From the NCBI GenBank assembly GCA_018004935.1, contig JAGNBF010000014.1, positions 1 to 32,466 on the forward strand: DNA of 32,466 nucleotides, in the 5' to 3' direction. Below, one piece after another: positions 5,188 to 32,466 of the stretch. The notes below the pieces were generated by a model. It made no database searches, had not been told where the DNA came from, and was given only the letters and a program-made list of their open reading frames with translations. Both the position numbers and the translations under genes were made by a program. The first letter of the stretch is position 1; each line of letters begins with the position of its first letter. The stretch is from Chloroflexota bacterium. Its GTDB lineage: Bacteria; Chloroflexota; Anaerolineae; Promineifilales; Promineifilaceae.

Positions 5188-5318
5188 ATTTCGGGGTCTT
5201 TGGGATTTCAGGGGGTTGACACCATCTGTAGGGGCAACCCTTGTGGTTTGCCCTCGGCGGGGCAGGCACAAGGCCAGCCCCTACATGTAGCCGCACCCCA
5301 CGAATTCCGAAAGAACCA
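5188..5318. repeat. Family-B palindromic MITE-like element (~120 bp). Other copies are at 13690-13812, 17995-18095 and 28190-28300. Partial copies are at 1966-2010 and 21617-21660.
   Basis: The shared ends are ggttcttggg(g/a)atttc(a/g)(g/t)ggggt ... accccgcgaattc(t/c)gaaagaacc. The interior has paired hairpins (gggcaacc/ggttgccc and ggcaggcacaagg/ccttgtg). The interior of the 13690 copy is inverted relative to the 5188 copy. Confidence 0.8.
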
Positions 5319-5361: not shown

Positions 5362-7500
5362 TTATAAGGCGTGACGATTGCCCATGACACTGACATCGTA
5401 CCCAGGTAACTGAGCCACCGCCTGACGAAATGTGCCATCGTGCAGGAGATCAAGTAGCGGCCGCAACAAATCCCCTTCCCCATGTTCCGCTGGTATCACC
5501 AGGTCGTACCGCTCCTGCGCCAGGGGGACAAAATCCAGTTGCAGGGCACGCGCGGCCGCAACCACCCCCAACCCCATGTCCGCCGTACCGCTGGAAATCG
5601 CGGCCGCGACCGCCAGATGGGTGTACTCTTCCCGCTCATACCCGGTCACCATCTCCGGCACGATGCCCCGTTGGCCTAACTCATAATCCAACAACACCCG
5701 CGTCCCCGCCCCCCTCTGCCGATTTACTAACCGGATGTCCGGGCGGGCAGAGTCTTCCCACCCCTTGATCCCTTTCGGGTTGCCCGGTGGGATGATCCAG
5801 CCTTGCTCCCGCCCCACCAGGGTGATCAGCATCACCTTTTGCCCCGGCAGGTAACGGTGGATGTACGAAACGTTGTATTCACCCGTCGCCGGGTCGAGCA
5901 GGTGGGAGCCAGCCAGATGGGCTTCGCCGCGCCGTAAGGCCACCAGCCCCCCCAGACTACCCACATTAGCGGAGCTGAGTCTGCGGCCGCGTTCGGCCAA
6001 AAATTGGGCCATTAAATCCAGCGTCAAATCGTGACTGCCAATGCACAAAATCGTCCGCTCAATCTCCGGCACGGTGCGATACAGGTGAACCGTCACCTGC
6101 GCCCCCGCCTCTTCTCCTTCGCTAAACCGGGGAATCCGCACGATGCCATCCGCCCGCACCAACGAGGTAATCACCCCCGCCCCCCGGCTGATGGGCGTCG
6201 CCAACACCTTCTCCCCCACCTTACCCACCGCCACCCGCACAAAATCATCATCCCCGGTGTGAGAAACCACCTTTCGTGTCAGGGTCGCCGGGAGTGTGGG
6301 CGGCTCATAGGCCGGTTGCCCCTGCCAACGGGCCAGCAACGGCTCGACGAATATCTCCCCGGTCAGTGCGGCACTGACGGGATAGCCGGGCACGCCAATG
6401 ATGGGGAGCGAGTGGGCGAGTGGGCGAGTGGGCGAGTAGGCGACTGATTCACCGTGTCTCCGCGTCGCCGCGTCCCCCTCTCGCCGCGTCCCCGCGTCCC
6501 CGCGTCTCTCGATCATCCCTAAAATAACTGGATGCCCCGGCCTGACCGCCACCCCATGCACCAGGAGTTGGCCTAGCTCTTGCACGACGTGGGCGGTGTA
6601 ATCTTTGCTCCCGGCGGATGAACCAGCATTGACGAGGATGAGGTCGTGGGATGCGGCCGCGTCTTTCACCGCCGCCACAATCTTCTCCCACTCATCCGGC
6701 ACAATCGGCCAACGGGTGGGAATGCCCCCCCACTGCTCCACCTGCCCGGCCAGGACAAGGGAGTTGAATTCGATGATTTGGCCGGGGGAAAGGGCCGAGT
6801 GGTGAGTGCTGAGTGCTGAGTCAGGAGAGTGAGAGACTGAGAGACTGGAGACTGGAGACTGTTCGCTGTTCACTGTCAACTGTTCACGGCTAACTGCTTC
6901 CACACTGACCAACTCTGACCCGGTGGGGATGATGGCGACCCGCGGCCGCGTATAAACCGTGACCATCGCATGACCAGAACCGGCCAAGGCTCCCAGGTCA
7001 ACCGGGCGCAGTTTGTGGTTGGCGGGCAGAACCAGTTCCGTGGCGACCATATCCTCGCCCAGCGGCCGCACATGGGTCCAGGGGGCCAGGCTGGCCCGAA
7101 TCTCGATGGCCGATGCGCCGATTTTTTGGGTGTGTTCAATCATTACCACCGTATCAGCCCAGATGGGCAGGGGCGCACCGGTATTGACCGCCTGCGCCGG
7201 GCGCACCCCTGGGGCAATATCTTCCCACGCTTCGGCCAGGGTCAACTGGAGGGGATTTGTCTCGGTGGCCTCGTGGGTGTCACGGGCACGCAGGGCGTAG
7301 CCATCCATGGCACTGGCGTGGTAATGGGGGGCGGAAATTCTGGCCCACACCGGCTCGGCGGTTACGCGGCCCAACGCCTGGGTGAGCGGGATGGTTTCTG
7401 TGCCGAGGGGTTGCCAGAGAGAGGCAGATTGCAACGCGGCCGCGAACCGGCGCCACGCTTCGTCAAGGGGTAAATCTTCGAGGTAAATGTTTCGTTTCAT
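5362..7500 (-). CDS. moeA: Molybdopterin molybdenumtransferase (MoeA) fused to a C-terminal PBP-like (molybdate/tungstate-binding-type) domain. It carries two low-complexity insertions.
   Basis: MoeA motifs are 'ISAPHYHASAMDGYA', 'NTGAPLP...ADTVVMIEHT', 'PRVAIIPTGSELV' and 'LILVNAGSSAGSKDYT...VAVRPGHP'. The C-terminal ~300 aa look PBP-like. I chose the start at the 7500 ATG (MKRNIYLEDLPL). The ORF track extends the frame to 7569. Confidence 0.8.
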   Translation of the reverse strand: MKRNIYLEDLPLDEAWRRFAAALQSASLWQPLGTETIPLTQALGRVTAEPVWARISAPHYHASAMDGYALRARDTHEATETNPLQLTLAEAWEDIAPGVRPAQAVNTGAPLPIWADTVVMIEHTQKIGASAIEIRASLAPWTHVRPLGEDMVATELVLPANHKLRPVDLGALAGSGHAMVTVYTRPRVAIIPTGSELVSVEAVSREQLTVNSEQSPVSSLSVSHSPDSALSTHHSALSPGQIIEFNSLVLAGQVEQWGGIPTRWPIVPDEWEKIVAAVKDAAASHDLILVNAGSSAGSKDYTAHVVQELGQLLVHGVAVRPGHPVILGMIERRGDAGTRREGDAATRRHGESVAYSPTRPLAHSLPIIGVPGYPVSAALTGEIFVEPLLARWQGQPAYEPPTLPATLTRKVVSHTGDDDFVRVAVGKVGEKVLATPISRGAGVITSLVRADGIVRIPRFSEGEEAGAQVTVHLYRTVPEIERTILCIGSHDLTLDLMAQFLAERGRRLSSANVGSLGGLVALRRGEAHLAGSHLLDPATGEYNVSYIHRYLPGQKVMLITLVGREQGWIIPPGNPKGIKGWEDSARPDIRLVNRQRGAGTRVLLDYELGQRGIVPEMVTGYEREEYTHLAVAAAISSGTADMGLGVVAAARALQLDFVPLAQERYDLVIPAEHGEGDLLRPLLDLLHDGTFRQAVAQLPGYDVSVMGNRHAL
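6405..6510. repeat. Microsatellite-like repeats inside moeA: (gagtgggc)x3-4 followed by cgcgtcccc-type repeats
   Basis: Direct reading of 'gagtgggcgagtgggcgagtgggcgagtaggc' and 'cgcgtcgccgcgtccccctctcgccgcgtccccgcgtccccgcgtc'. On the minus strand they encode '...ERRGDAGTRREGDAATRRHGESVAYSPTRPLAHSLP...'. Confidence 0.8.
6797..6862. repeat. Microsatellite-like 7-nt repeats inside moeA: (gagtgct)x2, (gagactg)x3-4
   Basis: Direct reading. On the minus strand they encode the low-complexity segment 'SEQSPVSSLSVSHSPDSALSTHHSALSP', inserted between MoeA motifs 'IIPTGSELVSV' and 'GQIIEFNS'. Confidence 0.8.
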
Positions 7501-7758
7501 GGTGTATTGTATGATGTGTATGGCGTGGTACGTATTGGGTGGTGCGTAGGTGAGCCTAATACGCACCACGCAACATTGTACCTCATTCCCCTTGTTTCGG
7601 GGTTCTGGACGGGGCTGATCCCCGCAATTCTCAATTTAACCAACGGCTAAAACCGTTGCCCACCAAAAGCACACCCGAAAAATGGCCCAACCCGTAGAAC
7701 AGCCTTTCAGGCTGTTCGCCCTTTCGAGAAAACAAAAGCGGCAATCGCCCTGTCCATC

Positions 7759-8123: not shown

Positions 8124-8427
8124 ATTTCCTATTCGACTCTGGCGAATTTGTACACAACCTCTGGACGTAGCACAGCCTTTCCAGGCGGTGTGTTCTCTGG
8201 TAAAACAAAAAACGCCAATGACGAGTTTCCTAGAAAAAAAGGGAACTCCAGGAACTGAGAAAAACTCATAGGATTGGAGATTAAATAACTTGAACATTTG
8301 CTGTGGCCGGTCTCCTGACCGTGCCACTTCCAGCGAACAAGTTATTTAGTTCTCCTTCCATAGGAACTCACCCCAGTTCCCATGAGTTTCCAGAGTTCCT
8401 ATGAGTTCCCACGTTCAGGAGTTTTCC

Positions 8428-10254
8428 ATGTCCGAAACAAACATCCCCTACGAACAGTCCGACCTGTACCGCATCCGCCACTCGGCCGCTCATGTCATGG
8501 CCGAGGCGGTCAAAGAATTTTTCCCGGAAGTAAAACTGGCAATCGGGCCACCCATCGAAGATGGTTTTTACTACGACTTCGACCTGGGCAAAGACGAAAA
8601 CGGCAAACCACGCACCTTCTCGCCCGAAGATTTGGAGAAGATCGAAGCCAAATTCAAAGATTTACTCAAACAAAACGCCAAATTCGAGCAGTCCACCATG
8701 ACGGTGGAGCAGGCGTTAGCCCATTTTGTTGATCAGCCATACAAACTAGAACTCATCCGCGACCTGGCGGCGGGCAAAGTGGATGAGATGGGCAACACTA
8801 CGGCCGTGCCTGCCCAGGAAGTCGGTATCTACCAACACCGGCAATTCACAGACTTGTGCCGGGGGCCACATGTCGGCTACACATCCCAGGTCAAGGCCAA
8901 CGCCGTGAAAATTTTGCGGGCCAGCGGGGCCTACTGGCGCGGCGATGAGAAAAACCCACAACTCCAGCGCATCTACGGTACGGCCTGGCCGAACAAAGTC
9001 GAATTAGACGAATATTTGCAACGGCTAGAAGAAGCCCGCAACCGAGATCACCGTAAATTGGGCAAACAACTGGGACTATTCCACATCTCCTCCCTGGTCG
9101 GTTCCGGGTTGCCCTTGTGGTTGCCCAAAGGAGCCGTTCTGCGCGAAGAGTTGGAGAGGTTTTTGCGTCAGGCACAACTAGAAAGAGGGTATCTGCCCGT
9201 CATCACGCCCCACATCGGCAAATTGGATTTGTACATTACGAGTGGGCATTATCCCTACTACAAAGATAGCCAGTACACGCCCATTGATGTGGACGGGGAA
9301 CAGTTCATGCTCAAGCCCATGAACTGCCCCCATCACATCGAAATCTACAAAAGCGAACCCCGTAGTTACCGGGATTTGCCCCTGCGTCTGGCCGAATTTG
9401 GCACGGTCTACCGCTATGAGCAGAGTGGTGAGCTAAATGGCCTGACGCGGGTGCGTGGTTTCACGGTAGATGACTCTCACCTGTTTGTCACGCTAGAACA
9501 GCTTCAGGAAGAGTTCATCGGCGTCGTCAGCCTCATCCAGCACGTGTTTAACACGATGGGCTTCCATGATTTCCGCGCCCGCCTGGGGACGAATGATCCT
9601 AACAGCGACAAATACGCTGGAACGCCGGAGATGTGGGCACAGGGCATTCACGCCATTCAGCAAGCCGCCGACAAAGTGGGCATGAATTACAAAGTAGAAG
9701 CCGGTGAAGCCGCGTTCTATGGGCCAAAACTGGACTTCATCTTCCGTGATGTGTTGAAGCGGGAATGGCAACTGGGTACGGTGCAGGTGGACTTCTTGTT
9801 GCCGCAACGGTTTGACCTGGAGTATACGGGTGAAGATGGGCAAAAACATCGCCCAGTGATGATCCATCGTGCCCCGTTTGGCAGTATGGAACGGTTTATC
9901 GGTATCCTTATTGAACATTTCAATGGGGCGTTCCCGCTATGGCTCTCACCAGTGCAGGCGATGATTGTCCCGATTACGGATCGGCATAATGAGTATGCCC
10001 GGCAAGTGGCAAATGAGTTGCGGGTCGCCGGTCTGCGGGTGCAGGTGGATGAGAGTGATGATCGGATGAACAAGAAAATCCGCAATGCCCAGTTGTTGAA
10101 GATTCCGTACATGCTGGTTATTGGGGATAAGGAAGCGGAAGCCAATGCGGTAGCTGTTCGGACGCGTACGGGTGAAGATCGGGGCGCGGTGTCTGTGGCC
10201 GAGTTCAAGGCTCAGGCGGTGAACCTGATTACCACGAAGGGTATGGAGTTGTGA
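8428..10254 (+). CDS. thrS: Threonine--tRNA ligase (ThrRS) lacking the N-terminal TGS domain
   Basis: 'RHSAAHVMAEAV' is the editing-domain HxxxH motif. It also has a class II catalytic core and a C-terminal anticodon-binding domain. AGGAG lies 6 nt upstream of the ATG at 8428. The ORF track begins at 8401 in the same frame. Confidence 0.9.
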   Translation: MSETNIPYEQSDLYRIRHSAAHVMAEAVKEFFPEVKLAIGPPIEDGFYYDFDLGKDENGKPRTFSPEDLEKIEAKFKDLLKQNAKFEQSTMTVEQALAHFVDQPYKLELIRDLAAGKVDEMGNTTAVPAQEVGIYQHRQFTDLCRGPHVGYTSQVKANAVKILRASGAYWRGDEKNPQLQRIYGTAWPNKVELDEYLQRLEEARNRDHRKLGKQLGLFHISSLVGSGLPLWLPKGAVLREELERFLRQAQLERGYLPVITPHIGKLDLYITSGHYPYYKDSQYTPIDVDGEQFMLKPMNCPHHIEIYKSEPRSYRDLPLRLAEFGTVYRYEQSGELNGLTRVRGFTVDDSHLFVTLEQLQEEFIGVVSLIQHVFNTMGFHDFRARLGTNDPNSDKYAGTPEMWAQGIHAIQQAADKVGMNYKVEAGEAAFYGPKLDFIFRDVLKREWQLGTVQVDFLLPQRFDLEYTGEDGQKHRPVMIHRAPFGSMERFIGILIEHFNGAFPLWLSPVQAMIVPITDRHNEYARQVANELRVAGLRVQVDESDDRMNKKIRNAQLLKIPYMLVIGDKEAEANAVAVRTRTGEDRGAVSVAEFKAQAVNLITTKGMEL

Positions 10255-10563
10255 GCGCCTGTTGGGTTAGGTTGTGCGCCGTTTTTGTGGTTATGAAGTG
10301 GGATGGGCGGGAGATGGGTCACAGTGCATAAGGCCTGAGGGCTTGCTCGCAAAATAATGTTTGAGTTTGCTGTGGCCGATCTCTCGACCGAGCCACCCCA
10401 GGGGCAGGAAACTTTTTTGGGTGCCGTTTTCCGGGGCGAAAGTCCCGAAAAACGGCACTGTTGAACGCCCCTTCTCGTGGGGAATTGTAGGGGGATAAGT
10501 GTCTTTTGTGGTGTGGGCCAGCACCCTGATAGCCTGAACTTAGCGAAGGTTAGCCCTGTATAG

Positions 10564-13680: not shown

Positions 13681-13823
13681 TATACACAAAAGTCGGGGTT
13701 TTTGGGAATTCAGGGGGTTGACACCAGATGTACGGGCTGGCCTTGTGCCTGCCCCGTGTAGGACAACCGCAAAGGTTGCCCGTATCCCACGAAATCCGGA
13801 AGACCCAAAAGTCGTAAATCCCT

Positions 13824-14639: not shown

Positions 14640-15115
14640 TCTACGCGGATTTCCCCCACCCCTAACCCCGCCCCCAGGGGCGGGGAACTTTTAGTGGGCG
14701 TTTTTCGCGGGCATTCGCCCGCGAAAAACGCCCACATTGTTTTTTCCCCTTCCTGCGGGGAATGGTTAGGGGGATGGATTATGGGGCGTGCGGATTTTCT
14801 CTGCCTCTAATCCCGATCCCAGGGGCGGGGAACTTTTAGTGGCCGTTTTTCGCGGGCATTCGCCCGCGAAAAACGCCCACATTGTGTTTTTCCCTTCCTG
14901 CGGGGAATGGTTAGGGGGATGGGTTATGGGGCGTGCAGATTTTCTCTGCCTCTAATCCCGATCCCAGGGGCGGGGAACTTTTAGTGGGCGTTTTTTCCCC
15001 TTCCTGCGGGGAATGGTTAGGGGGATGGGTTATGGGGCGTGCGGATTTTCTCTGCCTCTAATCCCGATCCCAGGGGCGGGGAACTTTTAGTGGGCGTTTT
15101 TCCCTTCCTGCCGGG
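14640..15115. repeat. Array of 4 tandem family-A units (~146, 144, 114 bp, then a truncated unit). Units 1-2 carry a 17-bp-stem hairpin. Units 3-4 have it precisely deleted.
   Basis: Each unit begins ccaggggcggggaactttt. The hairpin is gggcgtttttcgcgggc-att-gcccgcgaaaaacgccc at 14696-14733 and 14841-14878. Units 3-4 read ...gggcgttttttcccc..., lacking the hairpin. Confidence 0.85.
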
Positions 15116-15146: not shown

Positions 15147-16880
15147 TTATTCTTCCAGTTGGGCACGCAGGCTCAGGATGTGGCTTTCTAATTCGGTTAG
15201 TTGTTTTTCTTGCTCTGTGAGGCGGTCTTTTTCAGCGCGGACGAAACGGGAGAAGGGGGCAATACTGTTATCAATACGTTGAAAGGCCCGGCGCATTTCT
15301 CGGTTGAACTGTTCAGTAAGGCTGTTTATTAATTGGCGGCGCAGGTCGGCCAATTTTTGTTCCAGTTCTTGTTTGGCTTTGCGACGGCGCATAGGGAGGA
15401 TGAGAAGGCCCAGGGTCGCGGCCGCGAGGCCAGCCACAATACCCGTTACATCTACCCATACCACCTGTACCGCCAGAGCAATGGCTACCCCTACACCAAC
15501 CCCTACCCCGGCCAGGCCAGCTTCCACAACGGCCATACGGGCACTCTCCGCCAACCGCACAGCTTCCCCTTCATTGTCGTAATTTTCAATGGCGGTTTGT
15601 ACTGTCTTGCCGATGGAATCTACCAGTCGTTGCCGATCATAAGCCAACGTGCCTTCACGGGGGCCACCCTGGCCGATAATACGATCCTCATGATGTTGCC
15701 GCCGCTGGGCCAGATGCTCTGCCACCGCCGACCACTGGCGTAAATCTTGCTCCACCATCCAATCCACCAACTCCCCAACGCGGGTTTCGATCTGTTGTGG
15801 GGTATCCCCGATAACCTGGGCTTCGTAGTGCTCTTTGATTTTGCCTGTCTGAATGAGATCGGTAATGCGCCCCAGACGAATGGTTTCATCAAAGAAACTG
15901 TTGCCTCGTTTTTCGATGCCGTAAATCAGATTCTCTATTTCACTCAGGCGGGCGGTAAATTGCCGTTGCATATCATCCTGATAATAGCGTTGTTGGGTTT
16001 CGATGTCGCCCAGTAAGGTGGTATCTTCGCTTAATCCTTCCAGATCTTTGCGGACGACGTCTAGCTGTTTTTTAACCAATTTTTGTCCCACACCCAGGGG
16101 GTTAAGGAGCTTTAGCCGGAAGCGGCCGCGATCATCCAATGTTTCTTCAATAAAACGTTCTAACGGTTCAAAGCCACTCCCTCCCCACAGACGCGGTTCT
16201 CCCCCTTTCGCTTTTTGGGCCAGTTTCGCCGAAATGGGAAAAATGGCGGCAATCTCACCGATCAACCGTTTGCCAGCCTCACGCACAAACTCCATAACCT
16301 TTTCCACTTCAGTCTGATTATCCAGAATGTCTATTTTGTTGATCAGCAAAACAATCTTTTTCCCCCAATCTCGGATGCGGGCCAGAAATGCCCGTTCGCT
16401 CTCTGTAAACGGCCTATCCGCAGAGGTGAGAAACAGCACCAGATCACTGCGCGGAATAAAATCAGCCGTGAGCATTTCATGCTCCCGCAAAATGGCGTTG
16501 GTTCCCGGCGTGTCTACGATGTTGATGTTTCTCAGCCAGGACACCGGGGCTGTATGGACCCAAATCCCTTTTTCCCGTGGTGTCTGGGTAACGGTTTCTC
16601 CATATTTCAACAGGTGAATATGACTCGTCGTGGGGGTAACGCCCTCGGCCAGCAACCCGGAATGACCTAACAAAGCATTGATGAAGGATGATTTTCCAGA
16701 GTTAAACTCCCCGGCAATGACCAGCAGGAATAACTCATCTAATTGACGTAATGAGTCAGCGAGCGCTGTTCGGTCATCGGTGGCGGCGGAACTGCTGGCC
16801 AGCACATCTCGTAACTGCCCCAGAATATGCCGGGTTTGCTTCAATAACGCTTCTTGAGGTTCGTCTAAAATTGTGTCCAT
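15147..16880 (-). CDS. Bacterial dynamin-like GTPase with a C-terminal transmembrane segment and coiled coil
   Basis: G1 is 'GEFNSGKSSFINALLG', G3 is 'VDTPG', G4 is 'NKID'. 'VGVGVGVAIALAVQVVWVDVTGIVAGLAAATLGLLILP' is hydrophobic. The C-terminus 'EQEKQLTELESHILSLRAQLEE' is coiled coil. Confidence 0.8.
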   Translation of the reverse strand: MDTILDEPQEALLKQTRHILGQLRDVLASSSAATDDRTALADSLRQLDELFLLVIAGEFNSGKSSFINALLGHSGLLAEGVTPTTSHIHLLKYGETVTQTPREKGIWVHTAPVSWLRNINIVDTPGTNAILREHEMLTADFIPRSDLVLFLTSADRPFTESERAFLARIRDWGKKIVLLINKIDILDNQTEVEKVMEFVREAGKRLIGEIAAIFPISAKLAQKAKGGEPRLWGGSGFEPLERFIEETLDDRGRFRLKLLNPLGVGQKLVKKQLDVVRKDLEGLSEDTTLLGDIETQQRYYQDDMQRQFTARLSEIENLIYGIEKRGNSFFDETIRLGRITDLIQTGKIKEHYEAQVIGDTPQQIETRVGELVDWMVEQDLRQWSAVAEHLAQRRQHHEDRIIGQGGPREGTLAYDRQRLVDSIGKTVQTAIENYDNEGEAVRLAESARMAVVEAGLAGVGVGVGVAIALAVQVVWVDVTGIVAGLAAATLGLLILPMRRRKAKQELEQKLADLRRQLINSLTEQFNREMRRAFQRIDNSIAPFSRFVRAEKDRLTEQEKQLTELESHILSLRAQLEE

Positions 16881-17860: not shown

Positions 17861-18483
17861 ACAAGCTCAGGCAACGGCTTACAAGCCCAGGCAACAGGCT
17901 TAGCAGTTACGAGGTATGGTTCAAAAGTCGAGATACGGTGCTTAACAATATGTAGGGCGATTTGGTAAAGGGGGTGTTTCATTTTGGTTGAAAGGAAGAA
18001 AATAAGTTCTTTGGGGTTTCGTGGGGTACGGGCAACCCTTGTGGTTGCCCCACACGGGGTAGGCACAAGGCCAGCCCGTACATCTGCTGTCAACCCCTTA
18101 ATTCTCAGAGACTTATTATTCAACTCATTTGAAACATACCCTGTGCCTAATCGTCCTACATATTTGTAAAGCAGACCTGAACCATGCCGTTACGAAAATA
18201 CGCGATTACTTATAAAGCCAAGTTTACGACCGGGTAACGGTTTGGACAAGCCGCAAGCACTATTTCTCTGGGTGATTTGTTTTTTGTGGACGGGCAAGGG
18301 AAAGCCATGAACGGTGATCTGGCTTAAATTGGTTGTTTCAGGGTCTTTTCAATCAGGAGATGGGTGACTTTGTATTTGCCCACCAGGGCGATTTGAGGGG
18401 CGCGTTTCTTCTGGTTGCGAAGATGCTTGTTTTAGTTTTGTTTGTTGTTGAAAAGAACAGTATTCACGATGGAGGAGGTTTTT

Positions 18484-27937: not shown

Positions 27938-28653
27938 TGTCAGGTCTTGACGGAATTTAATCTTTTACAGGCCCTAAGTGGAAAACAAGGTAACGACTAA
28001 ACCCGTTGCCTGAGCTTGTCGAAGGCAAACGGGCTTCGACAAGCTCGGCCCTGGAGAGGGTTAGTTGTTACAAAACAAGAACGAAAGTTCGCTATTTTAC
28101 CACAAATCAGGAGTACAGGCAGGGCGATCACCTACTCGTCTAGCAATTCTCAATTCAACCAACGGTTATGGAGATTAAACAAATTGGGTTCTTGGGGATT
28201 TCATGGGGTACGGGCAACCCTTGTGGTTGCCCCACACGAGGCAGGCACAAGGCCAACCCCTACATTTAGCCCCACCCCGCGAATTCTGAAAGAACCCAAA
28301 TTATACTTACTTGAGTTTAGAGTTCAGAGCCAAAGCTAGAGGGTTTTCCAGAGTAATTTCCTCTTGCTCTCTCCTCTCGCTCTAAACTCCGGTACTTACC
28401 ACGGTCATAAAATGACATTTTGTTGGCGGCAACTGCTGAGTAAGCCTGGGCAGAAGACCCATCCCCCTACCCCTTTCCAAAGGGAAGGGGGGAAACCGCA
28501 CCAGAAATAGTTCCCCGCCCCTGGGGGCGGGGAACTTTTGAAGAGCCGTTTTTTGCAGGCATTCGCCCGCGAAAAACGGCCCCAATTGCCCTACATGCGG
28601 TGAGCACCCTGGTCGCTGAGTTTGGCAAAGGCGATACCTGTGGTTTGGTTGTT

Positions 28654-29544
28654 TTACCGTTTGGTCTGGGGCGAACCATGCCAGACATTGTCTACAATTT
28701 CTACAAAAGCCTGCTCCAGGACGGTCAGAGTGCGCCCTGGTCGGGTCATGAGGGCCGAATCCCAGCCATAGACGAGTTCTGGGGTGTGGACTTCCGCCAG
28801 GCCAAAGACGGCGGCCAGACGTTGGGGCATGAAGGTGATGGTATCAGGCTGGCGGGCCATGGGGAGCGCGGCCGCGAGAGGAACCCGTAACATAGGGCCA
28901 GGGTCAGTTACCATCTGGCGCAAACTCTCTATATGAGTATCAAATGCTTTCCCCCAGTTAATAAGCACCAACCGGTATTGCCATAGTTCGCCCAGAGCAA
29001 CGTTTTGCTGGTTAGCCAGAGGATGTTCCGGGGACACGGCCACGATCATCTTATCGTGCAGGCGTAAAAGCACCCGGGTTTGGGCGAGCAAATTGGGAAA
29101 CGCGGCCGCTAAACCCAAATTAAATACCCCATCTTTTAGCTGGTTCATCACAAAATCAGTATGTCCGGCTTCTATGTATAAATCGGCCAATGGGTAGCGC
29201 CAGTTAAAATCCATAACGACCTGGGGTAACAGGTAGGTAGAAAGGGAAAATGTGGCCCCAACGATGACCCGTCCGACGGCCCCTTGCCGTACCAGTTGTA
29301 GGGCTTCCTGCCCCGCTTCCAGAATATTTAGAGCACGTTCCACATAAGGCAGAAAGGTCTCGCCCAAGAGAGTGAGGCGTACGGGGCGCCTTTCCCGTTG
29401 AAACAGCATTCCCCCTACAATCTGTTCCAGGTTGTGGATGCGGGCACTAAGGGATGGTTGGGTGAGACTAAGCGACTCCGCGGCCGCGGTAAAACTCCCT
29501 TCATGAACCACCGCCAAAAATGCTTGTAGCTGATCTAATTCCAT
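28654..29544 (-). CDS. LysR-family transcriptional regulator
   Basis: The N-terminal HTH is 'LDQLQAFLAVVHEGSFTAAAESLSLTQPSLSARIHNLEQ'. A LysR substrate-binding domain follows. Confidence 0.85.
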   Translation of the reverse strand: MELDQLQAFLAVVHEGSFTAAAESLSLTQPSLSARIHNLEQIVGGMLFQRERRPVRLTLLGETFLPYVERALNILEAGQEALQLVRQGAVGRVIVGATFSLSTYLLPQVVMDFNWRYPLADLYIEAGHTDFVMNQLKDGVFNLGLAAAFPNLLAQTRVLLRLHDKMIVAVSPEHPLANQQNVALGELWQYRLVLINWGKAFDTHIESLRQMVTDPGPMLRVPLAAALPMARQPDTITFMPQRLAAVFGLAEVHTPELVYGWDSALMTRPGRTLTVLEQAFVEIVDNVWHGSPQTKR

Positions 29545-30208: not shown

Positions 30209-30337
30209 TCGCGCTATAGAATTGCAGAAATGATGGAGGCGGAGCCAACTGCCCCGTCAAGGGGTAAACGTAATTGTTCAGTTGCATCAATTCATTTGTA
30301 TAAACGAACCCTTAACACCTATACCAGAGGAACGACA

Positions 30338-31504
30338 ATGAGTTACCTTACCCACCTGGAATGTTCTTTTTGCCATAAGATGTATGATGCCGATCAACTA
30401 ATTCGGCTGTGCCCAGCCTGTGAACACCCCTTGCTGGCACGGTACGATTTGGTGCACGCGGCCGCGACGCTTGACCGTGACGAAATGGCCCATCGCCCTA
30501 ACACCCTCTGGCGCTACCATGAGATGCTCCCCATACGGGACCCCCATTACCACATCAGTCTAGGGGAAGGGGGAACACCCGTCCTTAAACTAGACAATCT
30601 GGGCCAGCTACTGGGGTTAAATCAGCTTTATCTTAAGGATGAAGGCCAGAACCCAACCGGCAGTTTTAAAGCGTTGGGGCTGTCGGTGGCCGTCAGTCGG
30701 GCCGTTGAACTGGGTGCCAGGGAGTTTGTCATTCCGACGGCGGGCAATGCGGGTGGGGCGCTGGCGGCTTATTGCGCCCGTGCCGGGGTAACTTCCCACG
30801 TGTTTATGCCGCAGGATGCCCCCCTGATCAACATTCTTGAGGTGCAGTTGATTGGGGCAGATTTGCGCCTGGTCAATGGGCTGATTAATGATGCCGGGCG
30901 GGAAGCGGCCGCGGAAGGGAGCGCGAAAGGGTGGTTTGATGTGTCCACGCTCAAGGAGCCGTACCGGGTAGAAGGGAAGAAAATAATGGGGTATGAGCTT
31001 GCGGCCGCGTTCAATTGGGAGCTACCGGATGTCATCATCTACCCCACTGGTGGGGGAACTGGTTTGATTGGCATGTGGAAGGCATTTGCCGAAATGGAAG
31101 CATTGGGGTGGATTGGCGCAAAGCGGCCGCGTATGGTCTCGGCGCAGGCCAGTGGCTGTGCCCCCGTGGTCAAGGCGTTCCACGATGGGGCCGAGGCTAC
31201 ATCCCCCTGGCCCAATGCCGCGACCATCGCTGGAGGGTTACGTGTGCCCGTCACCGTTGGGGGGCGGCTCATGCTCCAGGCATTACGGGATAGTCAGGGT
31301 ACAGGCGTGGCCGTACCGGATCATCGGCTCCAGGCGGGGCTGAGCCTGTTAGCGCAGAGAGAAGGGATCTTTGTGTCCTTGGAAGCGGCCGCGACCGTCG
31401 CCGCCCTGGAAGATTTGGTCAGCCAGGGTTGGGTTTACCCCGATGAGCGTATCCTCATTTTTAACACCGGCACAGGACTGAAACATCGGTTGATGCTTAT
31501 GTAA
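30338..31504 (+). CDS. thrC: Threonine synthase with an N-terminal zinc-ribbon
   Basis: 'CSFCHK...CPAC' is the zinc ribbon. The PLP lysine is in 'NPTGSFKALG'. 'GNAG' and 'TGGGTG' loops follow. AGAGG lies upstream of the ATG at 30338. The track ORF starts at 30230. Confidence 0.85.
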   Translation: MSYLTHLECSFCHKMYDADQLIRLCPACEHPLLARYDLVHAAATLDRDEMAHRPNTLWRYHEMLPIRDPHYHISLGEGGTPVLKLDNLGQLLGLNQLYLKDEGQNPTGSFKALGLSVAVSRAVELGAREFVIPTAGNAGGALAAYCARAGVTSHVFMPQDAPLINILEVQLIGADLRLVNGLINDAGREAAAEGSAKGWFDVSTLKEPYRVEGKKIMGYELAAAFNWELPDVIIYPTGGGTGLIGMWKAFAEMEALGWIGAKRPRMVSAQASGCAPVVKAFHDGAEATSPWPNAATIAGGLRVPVTVGGRLMLQALRDSQGTGVAVPDHRLQAGLSLLAQREGIFVSLEAAATVAALEDLVSQGWVYPDERILIFNTGTGLKHRLMLM

Positions 31505-32039
31505 ACATTATCGGGTGAGCAAACCCGCCCGGCGGTCAAACCGCCAGGCTTTCAGTAGTCGTGCAAAAATAACGTGGGTGGCACGGTCAGGCGACCGGCC
31601 ACAGCAAAGCGTTCAGTTAAATTCGGGTACCGTGTTGATTCGCCCATCCCCCTACGATTCCTGCCGAGAAGGGAGAAATACCAGGAGTGCCGGTTTTCGA
31701 GCGCACCGCCGCGCTCGAAAACCGGCACATTAAAAAGTTCCCCGCCTCTGGGGCAGGGTTAGGGGTGGGAGAAAATCCACGTATGCAATTGCCCCACAAA
31801 CCAGAGAAAATTACCGGGCAGGGGCTGTATTTTGTGTTAGAGTTGAGCAGAAAAAGCTGGTCAGCCAGGAAGCTATAGCTTTCAAGAAAAAGATTTTGGG
31901 TTTGTAGTAACCGCTTTAGCGGTCCCACGCTGGACGGCTAAAGCCGTTACTACCAACCAAAACCCCAAATGATTTTCTGAACATCTATAAGAAGCTGGTC
32001 AGCATTTCAGCCAGTCAGCACTTCGGCTGACAAGCCGAC

Positions 32040-32466
32040 CAGCTAAAATGCTGACAAACTATTCTTACAGGAGTTCCCCATGGATGGTATGCACACCAAG
32101 ATGGATGAAAATAACGCCACCATTTTTCATTCCTATCCGTGTTTTTTCCTATCCGTGTTTCCACCATCAGTGGCAATTTTCTCAGGAGTTCCCCATGTGC
32201 CTTTGGCACACCAAGAGGGATGAAAATCTGTAGGACGATTTGGTAAATCGTCCGGGCGATTTGCCAAATCGCCCTACATTTCGTAGGAGTTCCCCATGGG
32301 CCTATGGCACACCAAGATGGATGAAAATAACGCCACCATTTTTCATTCCTATCCGTGTTTTTTCCTATCCGTGTTTCCACCATCAGTGGCAATTTTCTCA
32401 GGAGTTCCCCATGTGCCTTTGGCACACCAAGAGGGATGAAAATCTGTAGGACGATTTGGTAAATCG
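32040..32466. repeat. Higher-order tandem array. It consists of 43-bp units (ggagttccccatgNgcctNtggcacaccaagaNggatgaaaat) alternating with two different inserts of 72 and 58 bp. Each insert occurs twice, so the array is a ~216-bp super-unit duplicated. It runs off the window end.
   Basis: Direct reading. Units lie at 32069, 32184, 32285 and 32400. Insert 1 is identical at 32112-32183 and 32328-32399. Insert 2 (32227-32284 and 32443-end) is a near-perfect ~50-bp palindrome made of two 9-bp-stem hairpins, ggacgattt-ggt-aaatcgtcc and gggcgattt-gcc-aaatcgccc. Confidence 0.85.

Follow-up and report, generated by a model that had tools for sequence, protein, structure and literature searches.

The window analyzed here, 32,466 nucleotides of a contig from a Promineifilaceae genome (Chloroflexota, Ardenticatenia), ends inside a tandem array of short repeats, each of which carries a Shine-Dalgarno (SD) sequence followed by a start codon. 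The array lies downstream of a gene for a PALP (threonine-synthase-like) protein (30338-31504), and a gene for a LysR protein is located further upstream (28654-29544). Both proteins are encoded identically in several public assemblies. The 388-aa version of PALP that starts at 30338 is on record, whereas the full version of the 424-aa open reading frame (ORF) at 30230-31504 is not. In other assemblies, the array leads directly to an enoyl-CoA hydratase (ECH) gene; the repeats occupy the ECH leader, and the window holds the 5' part of them.

Structure of the array and its continuation to the ECH gene

Tandem Repeats Finder placed a repeat with a period of 216 nt at 32069-32466 (1.8 copies, 97% matches) and an internal tandem of the 16-mer TTCCTATCCGTGTTTT at 32130-32160 and 32346-32376. 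A repeat search found a 160-nt stretch that is duplicated with 100% identity (32091-32250 and 32307-32466), as well as four copies of a 50-nt unit at 32063, 32178, 32279 and 32394, which are spaced by 115, 101 and 115 nt and are 78-100% identical. The first-pass annotation of this DNA had described four units with a 43-nt consensus, alternating with two insert types, and both searches and a consensus scan agree with it on arrangement and coordinates. Three units match that consensus with 0 mismatches, compared to 0 matches expected from shuffles, and unit 1 (32069-32112) is more diverged than the other three. The unit measures 44 nt in our analysis. We refer to it as the head unit, to a head unit plus insert A as U-A and to a head unit plus insert B as U-B, which makes the array a super-repeat, (U-A, U-B)n, of 216 nt. 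An SD and an ATG had been reported in every unit, and AGGAG-TTCCCC-ATG, with 6 nt between the two signals, is indeed present in all four.

All modules lie on the plus strand. Module 1 (32069-32183, 115 nt) consists of the diverged head unit, with AGGAG at 32069-32073, ATG at 32080-32082 and GGATGAAAAT ending at 32112, and of insert A (32113-32183), in which two 16-mers, TTCCTATCCGTGTTTT, are followed by a CCACCATCAGTGG hairpin and a AATTTTCTC tail. Module 2 (32184-32284, 101 nt) has its head unit at 32184-32227, where a perfect 6-bp hairpin (TGTGCC-TTT-GGCACA) overlaps the ATG at 32195, and insert B at 32228-32284 with the tail CATTTCGT; its 101-nt sequence occurs in five identical copies across the window, L018 and L021 (L-numbers are our labels for the compared loci and contigs). 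Within this insert, 32230-32277 is a REPIN-like head-to-head dimer of GTAG-tagged REP hairpins. The second insert type had been taken for a pair of hairpins, and two hairpins with 9-bp stems in inverted orientation are what it contains. Module 3 (32285-32399, 115 nt) is again a U-A, with the head unit at 32285-32328 (ATG at 32296) and insert A at 32329-32399. Module 4 (32400-32466) is partial and comprises the head unit (32400-32443, ATG at 32411) and the first 23 nt of insert B before the window ends.

Several reading frames are open across these modules. One of 47 codons runs from the ATG of module 3 to a TGA within the GGATGAAAAT of the next unit (32296-32439, plus strand), and frames of 12 codons at 32195-32233 and 32411-32449 (plus strand; MCLWHTKRDENL followed by a stop) end at the TAG of the GTAG tag. 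The first-pass annotation was right that such mini-ORFs exist, but their reading as real peptides was not supported, given that neither frame nor peptide is conserved. From the ATG to the conserved 3' block there are 8, 9 or 11 nt, depending on the unit, and most substitutions are non-synonymous. A search with the 47-aa pseudo-peptide returned only 13 homologous clusters, none with a Pfam domain and one named Candidatus Promineifilaceae bacterium. Gene callers had turned parts of the arrays into 'proteins' of 40-70 aa, and the loci of these yielded more arrays in the same and related genomes. On this basis, we judged the 47-codon and 12-codon frames to be by-products of the repeat rather than genes.

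The extent of the array was read from the PALP-downstream spacer laid out across assemblies. The same locus was found in four other assemblies (L018/L022, L021, L023 and L024); the window sequence is reproduced there, and the array then continues to ...GGCTATTTTCGTAGGAGAACACCATGTCCATGTCTGATC, the start of a 265-aa ECH_1 gene, with an array end that reads ...GGCTATTTTCGTAGGAGAACACCATGTCCATG in all four. The first-pass annotation had noted that the array reaches the window edge and expected it to go on to a downstream gene. The edge proved to be a contig break inside the array, caused by the repeats, and not the array end; the continuation of module 4 is visible in L018, L021 and L023, and the other assemblies run to the SD and ATG of ECH. 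Variation in copy number, also anticipated, was found as well: seven modules are fully spanned in L021 (a 4.58-Mb contig, CAWKWR010000010.1 of assembly GCA_963853475.1) and L023 (a 747-kb contig), compared to at least eight in L018, which has eight modules plus a 100-N gap. We considered that a single module might have been inflated at a contig end during assembly, a concern raised by the first-pass annotation itself. The window does stop inside the array, and N gaps within the arrays of L018 and L024 make short-read copy numbers unreliable. However, the two very long contigs come from independent assemblies and carry seven non-identical modules with unique sequence on both flanks, and the point changes between modules follow a consistent order, which makes such an artefact very improbable. 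Because other assemblies reproduce the window sequence and continue to the ECH gene, the array is a genuine copy-number-variable locus that breaks short-read assemblies.

At the ECH start (L018:12700-12715), the called start codon lies two codons 5' of the start in 263-aa orthologues (ATGTCC followed by ATGTCTGATC), and the module end may have created a new in-frame ECH ATG 6 nt past the donated SD. ECH orthologues with 88% (L047) and 77% (L048) identity are without modules, have different neighbors and start two codons later than the called ECH start.

A dispersed family of modules in front of unrelated genes

A conserved 21-mer from the unit was matched by one reference genome, that of Candidatus Trichofilum aggregatum (Chloroflexota, Ardenticatenia, Promineifilaceae), in a single place; it was also present in 16 metagenome contigs, 13 of them from metagenome Ga0268298. 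L014, from a second metagenome, holds a diverged but complete unit. Two of the 16 matches are apparently due to chance (L003, an AT-rich IS110-family transposon, and L011, which is unrelated), and a link to IS110 and bridge RNA was dropped given that the L003 match looks like chance. No match to the module was found in plasmid and viral collections, and in the collections searched the family occurs only in Promineifilaceae-like genomes and metagenomes. The literature that we searched contained no description of these repeats in Promineifilaceae.

Module boundaries are common to 33 distinct arrays, and the grammar is constant. A module of 100-115 nt consists of a head, one structured insert and an AU-rich tail. 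The head reads AGGAG-TTCCCC-ATG, about 9 variable nt and then CACCAAGAnGrATGAAAAT. Insert A (71 nt) contains two or three 16-mers with ATCCGTG, the last of which forms CCAC-N5-GTGG, and its length varies by 16 nt. Insert B (57-60 nt) is GTAG-GACGATTT-NNN-AAATCGTC-C followed by an inverted copy of GTAG-GGCGATTT-NNN-AAATCGCC-C, and insert C is made of GCGAGTGG / CTCGCAAA repeats; rarer insert types exist. The tail is ATTTTCGT, with variants (C/T)(T)ATTTTCG(T/C), and the next AGGAG follows directly. Every insert is bracketed by an 8-bp inverted repeat formed by ATGAAAAT and ATTTTCGT. Among the arrays compared, we found no 'empty' modules in which a head is joined directly to a tail, and the smallest inserts, at 29-30 nt, have collapsed to a single hairpin. 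Neighboring modules share one AGGAG at their head-to-tail junction, and a real gene uses the last AGGAG as its SD. Given the array starts and ends that we observed, an array can be written as n x (AGGAG + body) + AGGAG, in which the final AGGAG is the SD of the gene.

Both the head and insert B are structured. Together with the TG of the ATG, the variable nucleotides of the head make up a hairpin such as TGTGCC-TTT-GGCACA, and 82% of cells in this stem are paired across 32 distinct units, compared to 23-46% in slid-partner controls. One pair swaps from CG to GC in seven sequences, and length variants (TGAGCG-GG-CGCTCA and GGCGC-GAT-GCGCC) keep the stem with different letters. The head variant is tied to the insert, with TGTGCCTTTGG/AGAGGG accompanying B and GGGCCTAYGG/AGATGG accompanying A. 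Insert B with its flanks folds as RNA at -35.3 kcal/mol (z = -6.6), whereas the U-A fold is no better than that of shuffles (z = -0.3). The REP pattern, GTAGGRCGATTT, occurs at +32230 and -32277, and the loops at 32230-32277 are GGT in the GACGATTT/AAATCGTC hairpin and GGC in the GGCGATTT/AAATCGCC hairpin. Across the compared loci there are 13 REP variants with three stem types, all perfect (GACGATTT/AAATCGTC, GGCGATTT/AAATCGCC and GACAATTT/AAATTGTC), which are related through compensatory changes. In the dimers of insert B, the partners are 0-3 nt apart with their GTAG tags on the outside, and they can fold as one long hairpin. The polarity of the dimer relative to head and tail is identical in 22 of the 24 distinct modules in which a dimer is flanked by a unit or tail.

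Wherever the downstream gene could be identified, the array is co-oriented with it. Among the 24 distinct array ends, 19 have a long ORF (100 codons or more, or a minimum of 30 if it runs off the contig) that starts 4-10 nt past the terminal AGGAG, compared to 13% for other AGGAG sites in the same DNA, and at two of the remaining five a co-oriented gene begins 65-70 nt further on. The first-pass annotation had allowed that the units might occur only here and had proposed a search for further copies near gene starts; the search revealed a dispersed family at many of them. The same modules precede more than 15 unrelated genes at unlinked loci, which include those for ECH, transketolase, an E1-beta subunit, short-chain dehydrogenase-like starts, the Mo subunit of xanthine dehydrogenase (XDH), a LacI regulator, a luciferase-like oxidoreductase, GH114, methyltransferases and, in L001, a membrane protein whose gene is itself 3' of a co-oriented gene. 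The sequence directly 5' of the first AGGAG is unrelated between arrays. The first AGGAG of the L027 array is in overlap with the TAG stop codon of the gene before it, and the array ends at the SD of the next gene.

Identical 115-nt U-A modules precede the GH114 gene and the luciferase-like gene, identical U-B modules of 102-105 nt precede different genes on different contigs, and 82-95% identity is seen between modules of a single genome whose loci are separated by up to 3.6 Mb. Given this identity in front of different genes, the correlation between head and insert and the constant REP polarity, whole modules are the unit of spread. Module motifs are combined in other orders at other loci, and products of decay and recombination are common: the REP dimer has been reduced to one hairpin in L044, a deletion between CCC tracts is seen in L012, and L021 contains an internal duplication. 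L027 (4920-5585) and L028 (1075-1300) have the same methyltransferase gene and the first two modules in common; L027 then continues with four more modules and a transketolase gene, and L028 directly with the E1-beta gene. The arrays of L027 and L028 coincide with a break in synteny. At the XDH and LacI loci, the strain sets are nearly identical except for one rearranged allele, L044, in which the REP dimer is collapsed and 23 nt interrupt a head unit. In L041-L045, the LacI-family gene is preceded by long GGCGAGTAG/GGCGAGTGG tandem tracts, the length of which varies between assemblies.

Possible origins of the arrays

Any explanation of the arrays has to account for what we observed of them, namely the anatomy of the modules, their dispersal, orientation and adjacency to start codons, their identity between loci and their variable copy number. 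An origin as a CRISPR, or a degenerate one, at a contig end might be suggested by regularly spaced repeats of about 44 nt with a small palindrome, but it is extremely unlikely. The first-pass annotation had already rejected it and did so rightly, given that the supposed 'spacers' consist of two sequences, both repeated in this array and found again at many other loci; this sharing refutes a CRISPR. In addition, the repeats are merely 78-100% identical with a period that alternates between 115 and 101, the array ends at the SD of a gene, no cas domains were seen in the window or neighboring genes, and there was no Rfam match. Rfam scans, at gathering threshold for the whole window and permissive for 31400-32466, returned only sub-threshold, miRNA-like hairpin noise, and ARAGORN found no tRNA or tmRNA in the window. 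The first-pass annotation had likened the array to a leader-peptide attenuator or a ribosome-binding-site (RBS)-titrating sponge. Neither was supported, given that the module is not gene specific, that frame and peptide vary and that the AUG forms part of a small conserved hairpin. Within the array, the gene strand has no hairpin with a T run behind it except for one strain-specific internal duplication in L021, the sole terminator-like site, and a consensus scan found no sigma-70-like promoter on either strand of the whole 1.5-kb spacer. A broader role as a domesticated translational leader, in which SD-AUG mini-ORFs and hairpins would load or stall ribosomes and thereby protect the mRNA or tune its translation, with copy number acting as a rheostat of expression like that of a contingency locus, is in our view unlikely. 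The consensus SD 6 nt from the ATG is kept in every module, arrays abut real start codons and donate the SD, and copy number varies from strain to strain, all of which would fit such a role. In some terminal U-A modules (L035, L041 and L046), the upstream ORF and the start of the main gene overlap, an arrangement known from translational coupling (PMC12548453), and the GGAGUUCC of adjacent modules can pair mutually in the predicted fold. However, the genes behind the arrays have unrelated functions, the ATG is missing or a stop is present in some units, initiation would be hindered at an AUG inside a conserved stem, and the U-A fold does not exceed its shuffles. The high nucleotide identity between unlinked copies also points to recent spread rather than long-term selection at each locus. 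In folds of terminal-module RNA, the exposure of the terminal SD was not clearly different from that of internal SDs.

A purely recombinational repeat would need no transposition enzyme: similar 5' leaders would pass modules on through gene conversion or illegitimate recombination, and slippage would expand the arrays. No transposase was found in the DNA examined, the 5-nt AGGAG shared at each junction could serve as microhomology, the collapsed and recombined variants in L044, L012 and L021 fit this idea, and two common modules followed by different genes in L027 and L028 are what recombination between arrays would be expected to leave. We nonetheless hold this origin to be improbable, given that identical modules before unrelated genes without flanking similarity require some route to naive sites and that GTAG-tagged REP hairpins, where studied, are substrates of RAYT transposases (PMC3733652). 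A MITE derived from a DDE transposon was rejected because the module ends (AGGAGTTCCCC... and ...ATTTTCGT) are not inverted repeats and only the shared AGGAG is direct. Of the features of non-autonomous IS200/IS605-type elements (PATE), orientation, the AGGAG junction and hairpins near both ends fit; the hairpins are dissimilar, and TnpA was not found in the DNA examined.

We consider it probable that the ECH leader holds a BIME/REPIN-like mosaic of non-autonomous, essentially selfish repeat modules, each of which carries an SD, that have grown in tandem. Such modules would most plausibly have reached new sites next to an AGGAG through a single-strand HUH/Y1 enzyme (RAYT or IS200/IS605-like) acting on the hairpins; the GTAG REPs, the absence of inverted termini, the hairpins close to the ends and the strict polarity all suggest this. 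Illegitimate or microhomology-mediated recombination or gene conversion would be the alternative route. We propose that insertions are tolerated because the SD is regenerated each time at the correct distance from the host start codon. Arrays would then grow and shrink through unequal recombination or slippage between the 216-nt super-repeats. The mRNA would gain decoy SD-AUG mini-ORFs and very stable hairpins in its 5' leader, and any influence on ECH expression would likely be a side effect and not a dedicated control circuit.

Several observations weigh against this mosaic of selfish modules. Pfam scans of the large ORFs of the window, the ORFs of the metagenome contigs and the related loci examined revealed no transposases, and no RAYT (Y1 HUH transposase), the defining partner of REPs and commonly encoded between them, was found within the window or about 200 kb of related loci; the mobilization step is thus one that we can only infer. 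The module lacks terminal inverted repeats, and its two subterminal hairpins are dissimilar, unlike a simple IS200/IS605 end pair. About 90% of units retain the SD and ATG, which would not be needed under a purely selfish model. Because the head resembles native initiation regions of the clade (CAGGAGTTTTCCATG at thrS and GAGGTTCCCATG in L048), it could have been retained for function. Finally, the orthologues L047 and L048 lie in different synteny, and no precise filled/empty pair is available at ECH. A bolder version, which we regard as doubtful, is a new class of SD-seeking mobile DNA, in which a HUH/RAYT-like enzyme that recognizes single-stranded hairpins would insert directional cassettes of 100-115 nt beside the SD AGGAG. 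Each would bring a replacement SD and could thereby settle in the short gap between RBS and start codon without loss of the gene, and the resulting copy-variable stacks of decoy initiation sites would modulate host translation.

If the modules are indeed selfish, they would represent DNA that persists between the SD and the start codon, the most constrained intergenic position, by rebuilding the signal that it displaces. The arrays also matter in practice. They break short-read assemblies and end up as contig ends and N gaps, they yield spurious 'proteins' of 40-230 aa in databases, and they mark sites of synteny change. They could further serve as variable-number tandem-repeat (VNTR)-type markers for strain typing in Promineifilaceae.

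Other repeats in the window and likeness to known systems

The first of the long imperfect palindromes reported by the first-pass annotation is confirmed at 31904-31953, where hairpins of a second GTAG-tagged family form a head-to-head dimer (GTAGTAACCGCTTTAGCGGT ... inverted GTAGTAACGGCTTTAGCCGT); the pattern of this family matches at +31904 and -31953 and in one copy in L001. Directly 5' of the array, 31993-32060 is an imperfect palindrome with 27-nt arms that are 78% complementary, and a related copy lies near 16803 on the minus strand. A second window copy of the insert-B-type REP dimer is split (17950-18166). The palindrome fragment previously seen at 17949-17968 is its left half, the right half lies at about 18150-18166, and the dimer is interrupted after GGTAAA by a 177-bp MITE-like element (17969-18145), which sits inside the REP hairpin and has 23-nt terminal inverted repeats (GGGGGTGTTTCATTTTGGTTGAA / TTCAACTCATTTGAAACATACCC). 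Partial copies of this element occur at 13703-13803, 28188-28265, 5196-5286 and 1965-2000, and the same junction in L013 and L035 suggests that it may target these REPs.

The start of thrS had been linked to the unit in the first-pass annotation. The resemblance is real, in the form of tandem GAGTTCC-like 10/19-mers, but loose: there are no unit copies, and only the flavor of the SD spacer and the heptamer repeat family are shared. In the thrS leader (8340-8431), the likely true start comes after tandem repeats of the GAGTTCC type and the complement of these, AGGAACTC; its native SD context, CAGGAGTTTTCCATG, is at about 8416-8431 and its ATG at about 8429. The ORF start listed at 8401 probably lies too far 5'. 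Neither a T-box nor another Rfam leader was detected there. The minus-strand ORF 5362-7569, a MoeA-PBP fusion, contains tandem 7-8-nt repeats at 6408-6506 and 6797-6896 (GCGAGTGG x4.5, CCGCGTCC x6.9, GAGTGCT, GGAGACT and ACTGTTC). They lie between MoeA_N and the MoCF domain and within the MoCF domain, whose match is stretched, and may be in-frame repeat insertions. A palindromic family of about 125-156 nt (CCCATCCCCCTA ... central perfect hairpin ... TAGGGGGATGGG), sometimes in tandem, has copies at 1-296, 14642-15115, 31640-31790, 10396-10496 and 28458-28553, as well as in L005, L035 and L041. The octamer palindrome GCGGCCGC occurs 46 times in 32.5 kb, compared to 0.84 expected, or about once per 700 bp, in coding and non-coding DNA (e.g., at 773, 1049, 5457, 23506 and 31385); none lies inside the array. 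A full-text literature search for this octamer as a 'highly iterated palindrome' found no paper.

The cyanobacterial highly iterated palindrome, HIP1, is GCGATCGC, and the abundance of GCGGCCGC resembles the HIP1 phenomenon, here in Chloroflexota. Heptamer repeats of the STRR type were reportedly described in cyanobacteria by Mazel and coworkers in 1990. The genome around the array is similar to both in that it is full of 7-8-nt tandem repeats (GCGAGTGG, GGAACTC and ATCCGTG) alongside the hyper-abundant octamer palindrome, but such repeats are the background of the genome and not the module itself.

MIRUs insert at start codons with a coupled ORF (PMC12548453), and the modules resemble them as 40-100-bp head-to-tail units between co-oriented genes, with a small ORF each and a number that varies between strains (PMC12548453, PMC3184786). 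In both cases, insertion is thought to be tolerated since downstream translation is preserved. However, MIRUs couple via overlapping stop and start codons (-4 nt), whereas the modules regenerate an SD and contain ORFs whose frame is not conserved; the mini-ORFs of U-B end 58 nt short of the next ATG, and overlap with a gene start is found only in some terminal U-A modules. The modules also differ in their mosaic inserts, belong to another phylum and have no sequence similarity to MIRUs. Neisseria REP2 and Borrelia IR repeats carry a promoter, RBS and ATG (PMC3184786). The modules share with REP2 and IR-A/IR-B a length of 100-150 nt, the absence of terminal inverted repeats, internal stem-loops, an RBS and ATG, and a position directly 5' of ORFs (PMC3184786). 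REP2 differs in that it carries a promoter and supplies the start codon of the gene, whereas the modules donate an SD only, form long tandem arrays and have no sigma-70-like promoter that we could find. Given the lack of overlapping-codon coupling, a promoter and any sequence relationship, we do not claim membership in the MIRU or REP2 families.

The closest likeness is to REP, REPIN and BIME elements, which are known from Escherichia coli and Pseudomonas and also from Chloroflexi (PMC3733652, PMC3184786). GTAG-tagged REPs, which have been reported in Chloroflexi, are defined by the tag, a stem and inverted dimers, and their clusters can be reiterated in tandem together with flanking DNA (PMC3733652). 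Insert B has the GTAG tag, the 9-bp stem and the head-to-head dimer of this definition, with the slight departure that the stem can gain one more pair through the last G of GTAG, whereas the definition leaves the tag unpaired. Like REPs, it has many dispersed copies whose stems are kept by compensatory change, its TAG provides a stop codon, and other small elements insert into it. The BIME concept of mosaic REP clusters (PMC3184786) also applies, in that REPs alternate with a small set of conserved linker motifs and are reiterated in tandem as (U-A, U-B)n. The modules depart from REPs and BIMEs in that the REP dimer is one of several alternative inserts in a larger directional SD+ATG module and that the arrays directly precede start codons, in the orientation of the downstream gene, whereas REPs have been reported mostly near the 3' ends of genes (PMC3733652). 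Collectively, the feature is best classed as a form of known intergenic repeat systems rather than as a new regulatory device. If our reading is correct, a Chloroflexota lineage of activated-sludge-type communities would join in one module the REP/REPIN hairpins, BIME-like mosaics and MIRU/REP2-like translation-signal repeats that have so far been described separately.

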